From an uncultured delta proteobacterium (GTDB lineage: Bacteria > Myxococcota_A > Polyangia > Haliangiales > Haliangiaceae): DNA of 64,000 nt. Shown one piece after another: positions 9,138 to 28,371 of this stretch (the stretch's first letter is position 1; each line of letters starts with the position of its first letter). The position numbers and the translations under genes are program-made. The stretch covers positions 64,001 to 128,000 of the forward strand of contig CAWKDB010000011.1 in NCBI GenBank assembly GCA_963848295.1, in the 5' to 3' direction. The notes beneath the pieces were generated by a model. It did no database searches. It was given only the letters and a program-made list of their open reading frames with translations, and had not been told where the DNA came from.

Positions 9138-10915
<1,778 letters not shown>

Positions 10916-10928
<13 letters not shown>

Positions 10929-11782
10929 TCATCGCGCTCGGCGTCGCGGTCGCTGCGAGCGCGCACGCGGTCCCGAGCCAGGACCTCGAGCGGGCGCGCC
11001 AAGCATTTCGCACCGGTCAGTTCGCGCTCGCGTTACCGCTCTACAACGCCCTGCTCTACCCCGAGCCCCAGCTCGCGAGCCGCGACGATCTCGCGTCCGC
11101 GTACGTCTCGCTCGGGGTGTGCCGGTTCATCGCCGGCGACATCGAAGGTGCGAAGCGCGAGTTCCGCGAGGCCTTGCGCCAGGACCCGAACCAGCAGATC
11201 GACGCGACGATCGTGACGAACCACGGCGCGATCGAGCTGTTCGATCGGACGAAGATCGAGATCGCGACCGCGGCAGATCGAGAACGGCAGCGGATCCACG
11301 ACGCCGAGGAGCTCGAGCGGCAACGCCAGATCATCGCGAACTCGAAGATCGTCACCGCACACCAGTTCGGCCTCAACCTCGTCCCGTTCGGCGCCGGTCA
11401 GTTTCAAAACCACGACTATCTCAAGGGCGCGCTGATCGCCGGTGGGGAGGTCGCGACCGCCGCGACGAGCGCCGCGATCTGGGGCGTGCTCGTCAACCGC
11501 TACGGCCTGACCAACAACCACGTGCCGTTCCCCGATGGCCCGCACGTGCGGCTGCTGCAACAGGTCGAGATCGGGACCGGCCTCGGGTTCTTCGCGATCT
11601 ACGGCTACGGCATCATCGACGCGATCCTCCACTACAAATCCGAAACGACGCGCCAGGCGAACGAGTCGGACTTCCCCGAGCTCGCGAAGCCGAAGCCCAC
11701 CGCGCCGAAGAAGACGTCTTTCCATATCGTTCCGATGCTCGCGCCGAACAGCGCGGGCATCGGCCTTGCCTGGGAGAACTAG
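10916..11782 (+). CDS. Exported TPR protein with C-terminal membrane segments
   Basis: GTG overlaps the kinase end; signal peptide ALIIALGVAVAASAHA; TPR AYVSLGVCRFIAGDIEGAKREFREAL; NLVPFGAGQFQN motif. Confidence 0.75.
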
Positions 11783-11785
11783 CTC

Positions 11786-13591
<1,806 letters not shown>

Positions 13592-13712
13592 CGGCCGTCC
13601 TATCCACCGGAGGCGATCGCCGCGACCGTCTATGACGTCGATGTCGGATCCACGCTCTCGGCCGACCCCGGATCATCGCGGTAACCCCGCGACACGATTC
13701 GTGCGATCGCCG

Positions 13713-16023: not shown

Positions 16024-16235
16024 TCGCGCGACTTACAGGTATCGGATGATCACTGTTTCGACGAAGACCAGAGCATGTGAGGACGAATCCGTCCCGCATG
16101 CGCTCTGTCTCGGTAGCGCCACGCTAGGCCGCGATCAGCGACGTCGCTTGGTCCCGGCGAACCCTGGCTCCACGCACCGACCAGCCCTCCGACTGGATGA
16201 TCTCGGAGACGACTTCACGTCCAAGGTTTTTCACG

Positions 16236-19077
<2,842 letters not shown>

Positions 19078-19228: not shown

Positions 19229-22169
<2,941 letters not shown>

Positions 22170-23349: not shown

Positions 23350-24488
23350 CTACAGCTCGTCGCCGGCGAAGGTCAGCACGTCGTCGATGGTCGGCGCGCC
23401 GGTCGCGAGCATCACGAGCCGATCGAACCCGAGGGCGATCCCTGCCGACGGCGGCAGGCCTTCGTGAAGCGCGGCGAGCAGCTTGGCGTCGAGCGGATAG
23501 ACCGGCTTGCCGCGCGTGGCGCGATCGCGCAGCTCGGCCTCGAACCGCGCACGCTGCTCGACCGGATCGGTGAGCTCGTCGAACGCGTTCGCGAGCTCGA
23601 TGCCGCCGACGTATGCTTCGAACCGCAGCGCGGTCGAAGGCGCATCGGGCTTGCGGCGGGCGAGCGCGGCGAGCGGCGCTGGCCAGTCGACGAGGAAGAT
23701 CGCATGATCGAGCTGCGCGAGCTTCGGCTCGACGCGCGCGACGAACGCGGTGAAGAACACGTCGTCCCACGCGAGGCCGTCGGCGAGCTCGATGCCGGCG
23801 GCGCGGACCTTCGCGCCGAGCGCGGCGGCCGATTCGTCTCCGCCGACCGCGACGCCCGCCCAGTCGCGCATCGCATCGCGGACCGCGACCTTGGCCCAGG
23901 GCGACGCGATCGCGATCTCGCGCCCGCCGACGCGAGCCGTGGTGCCGCACGCGGCTTGCGCGAGCTGCTCGACATCGTCCGCGATCGCGTCGAGCGACTC
24001 GTACGCGCGATACCACTCGACCATCGTGAACTCGCTCGAGTGCTGTGCGCCGCGCTCGTTCGCTCGGAAGCATCTGCAGACCTGAAGATCCGCTCGAATC
24101 CGCCGGCGAGCAGTCGCTTCATCTGATACTCGGGCGACGTGATGAGATAACCGTCGCCGGCGCGGACGGCCTCGAGATGGAGCTCGAGCCCCGGGCTCGG
24201 CACGAGCAGCGGCGTCTCGATCTCGAGAAAGCCTCGCCGCTCGAAGAACGCGCGCAGCTCGCGCAACACCCGCGCGCGCTCGCGCAGCCGATCGAGCCGC
24301 AGCCGCGGCAAGCGCATGACCTCGCTGCCGGGCGCCGGATAATCGCCGCCCGTCCACGCGCGCGCGACGCGCTCGTCGTCGACCAGGTCGCCGGGCTTCC
24401 ACCCGGGCCGTGCGGTCAGCCGCGCATCGCGACGCTCGCCACGCACGACAGCGACATCGCCATCGATCGCGAGCACCCGCCCTTTCAT
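23350..24488 (-). CDS. epmA: EF-P lysine aminoacylase (frameshift near 24083)
   Basis: GFLEIETPLL, YLITSPEYQMKRLLA, FRANERG..HSSEFTMVEWY, RFEAYVGGIELANAFDEL, GIALGFDRLVM; directly downstream of efp. Confidence 0.92.
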
Positions 24489-25062: not shown

Positions 25063-25172
25063 GGCGCCGGGCGGTTTACCCCGCGCTGCGTGGGCCTGTC
25101 AAACCCAGAATCCGTCGAGAACGCGGGCGTTTGCGCCTTGCCGGTCGCGCGATCGTGTGCGATCTCAACCGC

Positions 25173-25694
25173 GTGGACGCCTCGTCACACTACCGCCAGC
25201 TCGTCCAGCTCGGGCGGGACGAGTTTTTGGCGGCCGCGGCGCCGGCCGCGCTCGTCCGCCACCGGGTCGAGGCGGTCGACGCGGCTGCCAGCGGAGCGTC
25301 GACGATGACGCTCGACGACCAGCTCGACGACCACAGCGAAGAGACGCTCCCCCACGGCAAGGATCTGCCCGATCAGGTCGAGCTCGAGGTCTACCCGCTG
25401 AGCAAGAAACCGGGCGCGTCGTTTCCCGATCGGATCACGATCGGACGCACCAGCAACAACGACATCGTGATCATCGACAACTCGGTGTCGCGACTGCACG
25501 CCTACGTGCGGCGCGACGGCGCGGCGTGGCTCGTCGCAGACGCCGGTTCGAAGAACGGCAGCTCGGTACGCGGTGCGACGCTCGAGCCGCGCAAAGAGCA
25601 ACCGCTAGCGTCGCGGATGATCGTTCGGCTCGGCGACGTGGACCTCACGTTCTACATCGCGGCCGATCTATATGCCGCGCTCGGAGGCGTATGA
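25173..25694 (+). CDS. FHA domain protein
   Basis: ITIGRTSNNDIVI..SVSRLHA...DAGSKNGS: intact phosphothreonine-binding residues; start uncertain. Confidence 0.85.
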   Translation: MDASSHYRQLVQLGRDEFLAAAAPAALVRHRVEAVDAAASGASTMTLDDQLDDHSEETLPHGKDLPDQVELEVYPLSKKPGASFPDRITIGRTSNNDIVIIDNSVSRLHAYVRRDGAAWLVADAGSKNGSSVRGATLEPRKEQPLASRMIVRLGDVDLTFYIAADLYAALGGV

Positions 25695-26059
25695 CCGACT
25701 GGGATCAACGGCAACTGTGTCCAGACGGGAGCTGCACCGGGCTGATCGGCAGCGACGGCCAGTGCAAGGTCTGCGGCCGCGCCGCGCCGAACTGGGGCGA
25801 CGAGCGCACGCGCGGGCTCGCGACCGACGATGAGGACGACTCCGAGGACGAGGATGAGGACGAAGGCGATGACGACGAGGCCCCCGACGCGCAGGCCGCG
25901 GACGACGACGCAGACGAGGAAGATGACGACAAGCCACACGCCGCCGACGACGACGCCGCGTACGAGTGGTCGCGCCGCAAGCTGTGCCCGGACGAGGCGT
26001 GCGTCGGCGTGCTCGGCGCGAACAACAAGTGCAAGGTCTGCGGCAAAGGGCCGGGATGA
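25691..26059 (+). CDS. Small acidic protein with two CPDxxC...CKVC metal-binding repeats
   Basis: GGAGG SD; ATGA overlaps on both sides; duplicated R.LCPD..C.G.[IL]G....CKVCG motif flanking a D/E-rich linker. Confidence 0.8.
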   Translation: MTDWDQRQLCPDGSCTGLIGSDGQCKVCGRAAPNWGDERTRGLATDDEDDSEDEDEDEGDDDEAPDAQAADDDADEEDDDKPHAADDDAAYEWSRRKLCPDEACVGVLGANNKCKVCGKGPG

Positions 26060-26724
26060 CCCGCGTCACGATCGTCGGCGCGGGCGGGCTCGGGGGCCCG
26101 ATCGCGTTCGCACTCGGAGGCGCGGGGCTCGAGCTGTCGATCGTCGACCCCGACGTCGTCGAGCTGTCGAATCTGCATCGCCAGATCCAGTTCACCGCCG
26201 CCGACATCGGCCATGCGAAGGCGCCATTGCTGGCAGCGGCGGTCGTCGCGCGTGGCGGCCGAGCTCGCGGTTACCAGCTCGCGTGGAGAGCCGAGGATGC
26301 CCACGAGCTTGCCGGCGATCTGATCGTCGATGCGAGCGACAGCCCGACCACGAAGTTCGCGGTCGCGGATTGGGCGGTGGCGACCGGTCAGCCGTACGTG
26401 ATCGCGGCGGCGCTGCGCTTCGGCGGCAATGCGTTCGCCGGCGCACCGGGGTCGGCGTGCTATCGCTGCCTGTTCGAGGAGCCCGCGATCGCCGAGACGT
26501 GCGACGGCGCCGGCGTGCTCGGTCCGGTGGTCGGCGCGATCGGCGGGGTCGCGGCCGCGTTGGCGCTCGGTCTGTCGTACGGCGAGCACGGCCACGCCGG
26601 CTCGATCTTCACGTTCGATGATCTGCGGACCTCGACCGAGCCGCGCATCGTCAAGCTCGCTCCACGCGCCGGTTGCCCGGCCTGTGCGCGCGCGCCGCGA
26701 CGGGTCGAGGCGGCGCATGCGTGA
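26056..26724 (+). CDS. ThiF/MoeB-family E1-like adenylyltransferase lacking the N-terminal RYxR helix
   Basis: VGAGGLG, DPDVVELSNLHRQ, DASD, CYRC, ETCDGAGVLGP, CPAC. Confidence 0.88.
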   Translation: MTRVTIVGAGGLGGPIAFALGGAGLELSIVDPDVVELSNLHRQIQFTAADIGHAKAPLLAAAVVARGGRARGYQLAWRAEDAHELAGDLIVDASDSPTTKFAVADWAVATGQPYVIAAALRFGGNAFAGAPGSACYRCLFEEPAIAETCDGAGVLGPVVGAIGGVAAALALGLSYGEHGHAGSIFTFDDLRTSTEPRIVKLAPRAGCPACARAPRRVEAAHA

Positions 26725-27124
26725 CGAGCAGGTCACACGCTACGCTCGACACATCCAGCTCGCCGACATCGGCGAAGCCGGCCAGACCGCGCTGACGGTC
26801 GCGCGCGCACGCCTGCCCTTGCGCGAGAGCGCCCCGGCGGCGGAGCTCATCGCCGCGAGCTATCTCGCCGCTGGCGGCGTCGGCACGATCGCGGTGGCGA
26901 ACGCGACCGACGAGCAGCGTGCCGCGCTCACCGCGCTCGGGCCTGATTCGCGGATCGTCGAGCGCCTCGACGACGCAGGTTCGCCTCGGGGCGGCGGCGT
27001 CGACGTGACGCTCGCGCAACGCCCGGCCTGGTGGCCGGCGGCGATCGGCGATCAGGTCGCCCTCGCGTTCTGGCGCGGTAGCGTCGCGGCGGCGGCGTGG
27101 ATGGTCGCGACCGCGAGACGGTGA
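26717..27124 (+). CDS. Degenerate ThiF/MoeB-like protein retaining the arginine-finger helix
   Basis: EQVTRYARHIQLADIGEAGQTAL and YLAAGGVGTI; lacks GxGxxG, SNLxRQ and the zinc cysteines. Confidence 0.75.
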   Translation: MRDEQVTRYARHIQLADIGEAGQTALTVARARLPLRESAPAAELIAASYLAAGGVGTIAVANATDEQRAALTALGPDSRIVERLDDAGSPRGGGVDVTLAQRPAWWPAAIGDQVALAFWRGSVAAAAWMVATARR

Positions 27125-28371
27125 TGGCCGTCGTCATCTCCCCGCGAGCTCGCGCCGAGCTGTTCGAGCGAGCCGCGGCCGCGCGCAGCGTCGAGTGTTG
27201 CGGCTATCTCGTCGGGCCGCGCGGCGCCGAACAGATCGACACGGTCGTCGCATGTGACAACGCCGCCGCCGAGCGCGCGACCCGGTTCGCGTTCGGCGAT
27301 GCGGATCTGCTCGCGTTCGTGCGCAGCTTCGACTCCGACCGCCCTGCCCGCGCGATCTATCACTCGCATCCGAACGGGCGCGCGTACTTGTCCGAGACCG
27401 ACCGCGCGGTGGCCGCAACCCGAGCCGGCCCGGTCTACCCGGTCGACCACATCGTGATCGGCGGCGACGAGGCGAAGCACTTCGCGTGGTCGGCCGTCGC
27501 GAGCGACTTCGTCGAGATCGCCCGCTGGCGTGCTACGGTTTCGCCGATGTCCGAGAAGCTCGACGCGCTCTCCGCCGCGCTCACCGACTATGGCCGCCTC
27601 GTCGTCGCGTTCTCGGGCGGCGTCGACTCGGCGTTTCTGCTCAAGGTCGCGATCGATGCGCTCGGCGACCGCTGCCACGCGATCACGGCGGTGTCGCCGA
27701 CGATGGCGCGCTCCGAGATCGACGATGCGCGCGCACTCGCCGCCGAGCTCGGCCTCGGCGATCGCCACCACGTCGTCGAGTCACACGAGCTCGAGGTCCC
27801 GGGATTCGCCGACAACCCCGCGCACCGCTGCGCGCTGTGCAAGACCGAGCTCATGGACATCGCGGCTCCACTCGCGGCTCGACTCGACGCGCCGGTCGCG
27901 CTCGGCACGAACGTCGATGATCTCGGCGACGTCCGCCCCGGCATCGCCGCGGCCCGCGATCGCGGTGCACGGATGCCGATGGTCGACGTGCAGCTGACGA
28001 AGCTCGAGATCCGCGCGCTGTCGAAGCAGCTCGGCCTCCGTACCTGGGACAAGCCCCAGCTCGCCTGCTTGTCGTCCCGGTTCCCGTACGGCACGCAGAT
28101 CACGCCGGACCGCCTGCGCCGCGTCGATGGCTTCGAGGACGCGCTGCGCGCGCTCGGGTTTCGTCAGGTCCGGGTCCGCTTCCATGACGCGATCGCGCGA
28201 CTCGAGCTCGACCTGGCCGAGCTGGCCCGGCTCGTCGAGCCCGGCGTGCGCGAAGCGGTCGTCGCCGCCGGCAAGAAGCTCGGGTTCACCTACGTCGCGG
28301 TCGATCTCGCCGGCTTTCGTTCGGGCTCGCTCAACGAGCTGCTGCCGCTCGGAGTCCGGAAGTCGTCGTGA
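27121..28371 (+). CDS. larE: JAB/MPN metalloprotease domain in frame with a LarE-family ATP-dependent sulfur transferase (LarE part 27547-28371)
   Basis: JAB: ECCGYLVG...YHSHPNGRAYLSETD. LarE: VAFSGGVDS, RCALCK, GTNVDDLGDVRPG, WDKPQLACLSSRFPYG, QVRVR, GFRSGSLN. Confidence 0.85.
   Translation: MMAVVISPRARAELFERAAAARSVECCGYLVGPRGAEQIDTVVACDNAAAERATRFAFGDADLLAFVRSFDSDRPARAIYHSHPNGRAYLSETDRAVAATRAGPVYPVDHIVIGGDEAKHFAWSAVASDFVEIARWRATVSPMSEKLDALSAALTDYGRLVVAFSGGVDSAFLLKVAIDALGDRCHAITAVSPTMARSEIDDARALAAELGLGDRHHVVESHELEVPGFADNPAHRCALCKTELMDIAAPLAARLDAPVALGTNVDDLGDVRPGIAAARDRGARMPMVDVQLTKLEIRALSKQLGLRTWDKPQLACLSSRFPYGTQITPDRLRRVDGFEDALRALGFRQVRVRFHDAIARLELDLAELARLVEPGVREAVVAAGKKLGFTYVAVDLAGFRSGSLNELLPLGVRKSS

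Follow-up and report, generated by a model that had tools for sequence, protein, structure and literature searches.

The window, by which we mean the whole stretch of 64,000 nucleotides that was analysed, holds on its forward strand a run of neighbouring genes around two E1-like reading frames, ORF1 and ORF2. The features at the locus are as follows.

25131..25694, forward strand: FHA-domain protein, a conserved upstream neighbour in the order
25691..26059, forward strand: small Cys-rich, acidic protein that carries two CPDxxCxG...CxxCG repeats and whose translation is coupled to that of ORF1; a conserved neighbour
26056..26724, forward strand: ORF1 (P0001, 222 aa), catalytic MoeB/ThiF-type E1 subunit without the N-terminal RYxR helix, assigned from motifs, Pfam ThiF, PRK08762 and alignment to E. 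coli ThiF
26717..27124, forward strand: ORF2 (P0002, 135 aa), degenerate pseudo-E1 subunit, assigned from PRK08762, alignment to ThiF, AlphaFold2 and Foldseek
27124..28371, forward strand: JAB/MPN+ protease (about 27124-27549; Prok-JAB, 1e-13) in one frame with a LarE sulfur transferase (from 27547; TIGR00268, over cut-off)

Complementary E1 features in ORF1 and ORF2

As for ORF1, it starts at the P-loop strand and retains all the catalytic motifs of MoeB/ThiF (G8xGxxG13, S38NLHRQ, K55, D95, C135xxC138, C149 and C207xxC210). In the Pfam ThiF profile its match begins at position 21 and in PRK08762 at position 148; the ThiF score is 133.6 against a cut-off of 28.1, and ORF1 scores below every listed NCBIfam MoeB/ThiF cut-off. 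When aligned to E. coli ThiF (1ZUD), the match begins at ThiF residue 30, R42, K55 and D95 correspond to R70, K83 and D127, and neither of the CxxC pairs nor the crossover Cys is lost. ORF1 is colinear with ThiF 30-244, with neither an inserted catalytic-Cys domain nor a ubiquitin-fold domain at the C-terminus. An HMM of the N-helix, searched against the whole genome, matched ORF2 and a full-length MoeB paralogue alone, and nothing in ORF1. A longer ORF1, starting at the in-frame upstream GTG at 25966, was considered and rejected, as it gains only overlap with the previous gene, without RYxR, and does not restore the helix.

The same catalytic inventory is found in 67 distinct helix-less homologues, with the first CxxC in 67 of 67, the Mg-binding Asp in 65, the crossover Cys in 66 and the second CxxC in 57 (GxGxxG and NLxRQ, present in 67 of 67, were the selection criteria themselves). 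The helix-less E1 of G480 has a stop codon ahead of the last CxxC. A comparison of Arg/Lys columns revealed that the helix-less enzymes have gained no invariant Arg or Lys, the largest gains being at positions 66 (72%) and 204 (81%).

ORF2 retains an N-helix (R8-Y9-A10-R11-H12) that includes Arg11, together with β1, the YLAAGGVG helix and, at the C-terminus, a long helix predicted to make the dimer contact. Cysteines, a P-loop and NLxRQ are all missing from its sequence. ORF2 matches PRK08762 at 121-180 and has no Pfam ThiF match. A profile of its family aligns to ThiF 1-70, placing R11 on the trans-acting R11 of ThiF, and in a profile-profile comparison the N-terminal half alone was matched (86.8%). 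The AlphaFold2 model of ORF2 has a pLDDT of 90 and, when used as a Foldseek query, has ThiF (1zud) as its top match (E 4.2e-4, TMq 0.64), with Uba4 and MoeB next and NEDD8- and SUMO-E1 entries matched weakly (E 0.015-0.1). ORF2 is an E1 fold minus its active-site motifs, in which the trans-acting Arg is kept. The original prediction, which gave ORF1 the motif set without the RYxR helix, and ORF2 the helix without P-loop and cysteines, is thus confirmed in coordinates and motifs.

The claim that the split cannot stem from one indel holds as well. A single frameshifted gene is ruled out by the order of the two halves, which is the wrong one, and by the ThiS/MoaD-family carrier gene (product ending PAIAGG) that sits between E1 and pseudo-E1 in most relatives. 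Moreover, the 8-nt overlap between ORF1 and ORF2 recurs in the relative L007 and is therefore not an indel artefact.

Conservation, linkage and history of the pair

Homologues of ORF2 number 364 among 716 candidates, those named Kofleriaceae being 60-62% identical, which would assign the window to this family of myxobacteria. In same-genus genomes, a strong match is present in 20 of 24 and a divergent, fused or contig-cut copy in three more; ORF2 was not found in the one other, G008, which is 80% complete. Mean column identity over 60 pseudo-E1 sequences is 32%, and R11 is among the four invariant columns. The Arg is retained in 75 of 76 distinct copies (L111 has His there) and NLxRQ in none; excluded from these counts are L023, from the unpublished G010, and L132, L145, L206, L235 and L298, full-length or unrelated E1s that the helix HMM had picked up. 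Across 18 same-genus loci, all 153 pairs have a dN/dS below 1, with medians of 0.47 for ORF2 and 0.32 for ORF1, as estimated by the Nei-Gojobori method, which is crude at this high GC and near saturation.

Co-occurrence, which the original prediction had proposed as a check, speaks for the heterodimer. Both profiles were run on 61 family genomes, drawn evenly: 55 have both genes, six have neither and none has one alone (54 of 60 have both when the unpublished G010 is set aside), figures that are tallies and not a test since family genomes are kin and not independent. An ORF2 absent or decaying in relatives, the genomic outcome that would have spoken against the prediction, was not seen. The two genes lie within 4 kb of each other in 53 of the 55 genomes; in G488 they are divided over two contigs, and in G506 both persist 785 kb apart. 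By the helix-HMM rule, on which the E1 classes rest, 71 of the 76 pseudo-E1 copies share their locus with a helix-less E1, one has an E1 cut by the contig end, four lie in a locus that runs to the contig end without a helix-less E1, and none adjoins a full-length E1. Nine pair-associated E1s with RYxR-like text upstream of their start codon were considered as full-length, and all nine are helix-less by the helix HMM. The pair is present in 17 of the phylum's family codes. A phylum-wide search yields no frequency for it, since its score does not separate pseudo-E1 from ordinary MoeB, and a search with a narrower alignment gave mainly ordinary MoeBs.

In three genomes that encode ThiS-family carriers, namely G028 (98% complete), G450 (a single contig of 3.57 Mb) and G426, nothing but the pair matches the ThiF family over cut-off, and the pair persists in G006, G412 and G488, where a full-length MoeB was not found. 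A lone helix-less E1 is seen in L299 (G472), with no pseudo gene in its 5.7-kb contig. Natural fusions of the two halves exist in both orders: E1-then-pseudo in L077 (452 aa), and pseudo-then-E1, the order of UBA1 and BilD, in P0233 (396 aa) and P0234, which are 53% identical. In a further fusion, a pseudo-E1 is joined to JAB (L084:6045-6752). L070:3293-4291, L350:3880-4821, L096 and L109 comprise catalytic E1-carrier fusions (two genomes) and a catalytic E1 with a TusA-like domain.

As for the origin of the pair, an unsplit state is seen in L076 (G035), where the same operon has a single full-length MoeB and no pseudo gene. Two operons with two intact E1 copies each (L152 and L295) show what the starting point of the split could look like. 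In a catalytic-domain tree (79 rows, LG+G4, no mixture model), the 35 split Myxococcota catalytic subunits fall on one side (93/63) and, together with the L076 enzyme, make up a starred group (100/95), the direction of change being our own reading of a tree without a fixed root. The Bacillota-class genomes G426, G450, G457 and G479 have a helix-less E1 in tandem with a less degraded pseudo-E1, in which RYxRH is kept and GxGxxG and NLxRQ are missing. In the tree, their catalytic subunits are placed within the full-length enzymes of the same class, and a single clade of the Bacillota and Myxococcota split sets was rejected by an AU test (p=0.006) that was chosen after inspecting a quick tree. 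On this phylogeny, the Bacillota pairs appear to have arisen independently. In G450, the Bacillota-class pair has IS elements and a reverse-transcriptase-like gene on its flanks (L292:5308-6594 and 10225-13673).

We lean, by a narrow preference, towards a history in which homodimeric MoeB repeatedly became an active/inactive heterodimer with one site, through one event early in Myxococcota and one or more in Bacillota, with some lineages re-fusing the genes in the UBA1/BilD order. If so, living genomes would keep each step of the route proposed for the canonical eukaryotic E1s, from single gene to tandem duplicate, complementary loss, minimal inactive subunit of 100-135 aa and fusion, and no smaller system than the pair would be available for testing why E1 cores turn asymmetric. 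A two-gene asymmetric E1 found across a bacterial phylum, probably repeated independently and fused in either order, would indicate that such asymmetry arises readily and without an E2 cascade.

Operon context and likely substrate

The fullest operon comprises rrf2, cysK, E1, a thrC-like gene, the carrier, NIL and pseudo-E1, then a cysM-like gene, JAB, dsrE, two small dsrF/H-like genes, tusA, ATP sulfurylase and larE, the cysK/cysM/thrC and dsrF/H labels being author-assigned (Pfam gives PALP or nothing). E1, a ThiS/MoaD-like carrier, JAB and cysteine synthase are found in one operon in the relatives L066, L069, L209 and L211. Of 73 carriers of the type lying between E1 and pseudo-E1, 52 extend past the Gly-Gly and would have to be trimmed. 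Sulfur operons in the style of Iyer 2006 we take to be of the CysO/CysM/Mec type. The context of the pair is sulfur-carrier metabolism (Ubl, JAB, CysM, TusA) and not ubiquitination, and no E2 was identified among the annotated neighbours. The gene content of the ancestral operon matches rows 4c/4e among the sulfur operons that Iyer et al. 2006 describe (PMC1779556), in which, as far as the available part of that paper goes, each operon has one E1-like protein and, unlike here, no inactive E1 partner is described.

The locus in the window keeps E1, pseudo-E1, JAB and LarE and has neither a carrier nor cysM; no CysO-type carrier, tusA, dsrE, NIL or sat was found elsewhere in its genome, which is 85% complete. 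The sole ThiS-family gene of this genome is MoaD, beside MoaE, and a full-length rhodanese-MoeB (L001) and a TcdA-like gene are encoded as well. Since the operon carrier, tusA and dsrE are gone and MoaD is the single ThiS-family gene, the substrate is most likely MoaD, shared with the rhodanese-MoeB. MoaD (L035:1489-2165; G000:C2 near 941867) ends in GGAA and is in another frame than MoaE, and the relatives L309-L313 have a MoaD-MoaE fusion. JAB proteases cleave MoaD-MoaE-type fusions. With either a GGAA end or a MoaD-MoaE fusion, a protease would be needed to expose the Gly-Gly, which may explain why JAB is retained; it stays with the pair after the locus has lost cysM, thrC and tusA. LarE (27547-28371; relatives L066, L080 and L083) likewise keeps its linkage with the E1 pair and JAB where the genes for cysteine synthesis have gone. 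In four relatives (L314-L317), thiS-thiG have no adjacent thiF within the 3-kb loci, so their activator would lie elsewhere and could be the E1 pair or the rhodanese-MoeB.

The JAB-LarE reading frame spans 415 aa from 27124, and relatives have separate ORFs; the single frame is either a fusion or an assembly indel. Assembly indels are suggested by a DEAD-box helicase (16197-19077), UvrA (19229-22169) and an EpmA-like gene (23350-24488), each of which is in several frames. As for the Cys-rich protein at 25691-26059, no Pfam or NCBIfam family matches over cut-off, and the Atlas gives hypothetical clusters alone, from Myxococcota and Thermodesulfobacteriota. Proteins of this kind, with two to three CPDGxCxGxxGxxGxCxxCG repeats, are kept upstream of the sulfur operon across Myxococcota.

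A probable one-site heterodimeric E1 and its alternatives

When ORF1 and ORF2 were modelled together with ATP and Zn, the heterodimer scored 0.95 in three runs and the best of three controls 0.02, a pass that may be memory since MoeB/ThiF homodimers have already been solved, and that shows likeness, not binding. Among solved complexes, 116 of 157 reach the mark for such scores, and among mismatched pairs 2 of 215; for ORF1-ORF2 these counts are only a rough guide. The runs have at least 99% of contacts in common, with a partner pLDDT of at least 91. In the predicted interface, ORF1 helix 150-175 faces ORF2 105-130, and the contacts include ORF2 7-12 and ORF1 37-44, the SNLHRQ ATP loop. The tightest predicted contacts are helix-helix, between ORF2 114-122 and ORF1 15-19 and 157-168.

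We consider it likely that the duplication of a MoeB/ThiF gene has left ORF1 and ORF2 as complementary remnants, which together form a 1:1 asymmetric E1 with one active site that adenylates sulfur-carrier proteins. As predicted by the model, ORF2 would replace the second protomer, its helix 112-130 packing on ORF1 helix 150-175, and its residues 7-12 would lie on the S38NLHRQ ATP loop, so positioned that Arg11 would reach the ATP phosphates. Arg11 may speed adenylation, perhaps without being essential, and the dependence on ORF2 may be largely structural. The pathway would start with JAB exposing the Gly-Gly of the carrier and the pair adenylating it; persulfide carriers of the TusA/DsrE type would then yield a thiocarboxylate, to be consumed by the CysM-like synthase.

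Among known systems, E. coli MoeB-MoaD and ThiF-ThiS (PDB 1JW9 and 1ZUD) are the best sequence and fold matches of both ORFs, sharing the adenylation motifs and the sulfur-carrier context. However, MoeB and ThiF are two-site homodimers with N-helix and active site on each chain, whereas ORF1 and ORF2 distribute these features over two genes with one predicted site. Prokaryotic MoeB/ThiF are active-only homodimers according to the available text of a 2025 review (PMC12687455), and the combination of an inactive and an active half is, in the parts available of PMC12355090 and PMC11354881, a known feature of eukaryotic E1 cores. The original prediction drew a parallel to these, and it stands for the adenylation core: NAE1(APPBP1)-UBA3, SAE1(Aos1)-SAE2(Uba2) and the fused UBA1 combine inactive and active adenylation domains, as does the pair, and the P0233/P0234 fusion shares the inactive-then-active order of UBA1. 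Beyond the core the parallel fails, since unlike NAE/SAE the pair has no inserted Cys domain (FCCH/SCCH) or UFD, has no E2 identified nearby, lies in a sulfur-carrier operon and has an inactive subunit of just 135 aa. Since the pair sequences group with bacterial MoeB/ThiF, in a tree without eukaryotic rows, the likeness to eukaryotic E1s would be convergence and not orthology.

Such a core was, moreover, already known in bacteria. In BilD, the E1 of the type II BilABCD anti-phage system (PDB 8TYZ), an inactive domain supplies Arg9 to the single site, as described in the available part of PMC10557695. BilD is one chain (IAD-AAD-CYS) with a mobile CYS domain, an E2 and a role in defence, whereas the pair consists of two genes without a CYS domain in a sulfur operon, and ORF1 is weakly similar to BilD (E 4.5e-4). 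Yeast Tcd1-Tcd2, the ct6A synthase, is an E1-like heterodimer from a duplicated homodimer, whose inactive paralogue keeps the arginine finger that the active one has lost (PMC13139853, in the part available). It differs from the pair in being eukaryotic, of the TcdA subfamily and specific for a tRNA substrate, and in having both chains full length. With BilD (a single chain) and Tcd1/Tcd2 as known precedents, the new element would be the two-gene bacterial asymmetric form, of which we found no report in the literature searched, a scope that excludes supplements and Burroughs, Iyer and Aravind 2009. The pair opens two questions to study in small soluble proteins: the role of the trans-arginine, and whether selection or a neutral course of complementary losses gives rise to half-of-sites E1s.

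How much Arg11 contributes is where the nearest alternative departs from a one-site E1 with a working finger. It is a considerably less probable reading, in which the heterodimer forms and ORF2 is a scaffold for folding and dimerisation only, Arg11 making no real catalytic contribution, as reported for Tcd1. In the available text of PMC13139853 (2026), the finger of ThiF (Arg11) comes from the neighbouring subunit, the fingers of MoeB (Arg14) and ThiF are non-essential, and E. coli TcdA has none; the finger of Tcd1 is dispensable too, R59A costing 26%, and Tcd1 is nonetheless required for the solubility, stability and activity of Tcd2. Since the finger is reported as non-essential, the partner may serve mainly as a scaffold, which is consistent with the helix-helix nature of the tightest predicted contacts and with L111, which lacks the Arg. 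However, the retention of the Arg in all other copies, in a family where most columns vary, argues for some role of Arg11, as does BilD, in which Arg9 is described as key to the single site (PMC10557695, in the part available). The original prediction of an obligate active/inactive heterodimer is thus well supported as to the heterodimer, for which the joint occurrence of the genes, the purifying selection on them, their fusion in either order and the model of the complex all argue, whereas an obligate dependence through the trans Arg is its weakest part, given the published fingers (available part of PMC13139853).

We regard it as unlikely that ORF1 is self-sufficient, as a finger-less TcdA-like homodimer or with a canonical MoeB partner, and that ORF2 is a regulator or adaptor, such as an inhibitor or a JAB tether. 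TcdA does lack the finger (PMC13139853, available part), a pseudo-E1 is fused to JAB in L084, and the full-length MoeB (L001) of the window's genome could take over the task or act as the partner of ORF1. Yet, none of the 61 genomes has one gene alone, the pair persists without a detected full-length MoeB in G006, G412, G488, G028, G450 and G426, the fusions join E1 to pseudo-E1 in both orders, and the helix-less enzymes show no invariant new Arg or Lys.

That the one-site E1 activates a ubiquitin-like protein for protein conjugation (SAMP/Urm1/TtuB-like), instead of or besides sulfur transfer, is very improbable. The crossover Cys is kept in 66 of 67 enzymes, JAB outlasts cysM, thrC and tusA at the locus, and the FHA and Cys-rich genes are conserved neighbours, all of which would fit conjugation. 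However, the ancestral operon (cysK-thrC-Ubl-cysM-dsrE-tusA-sat-larE) resembles the sulfur operons in rows 4c/4e of PMC1779556 (in its available part), no E2 was identified among the annotated neighbours, and the equivalent Cys of MoeB/ThiF is not the one that forms the thioester, according to the part available of PMC13139853. Finally, despite the apparent frameshifts in other genes of the assembly and the missing ThiF Pfam match, the notion of ORF2 as an artefact of the assembly or a duplicate in decay has next to no probability and is refuted by its 364 homologues, the dN/dS below 1 in all 153 pairs, the 17 family codes and the 55 of 61 genomes with both genes.

For annotation, the consequence of the asymmetric E1 is a correction: the truncated E1 looks broken unless its partner is recognised, and ORF2-type partners are labelled hypothetical or adenylyltransferase in databases.
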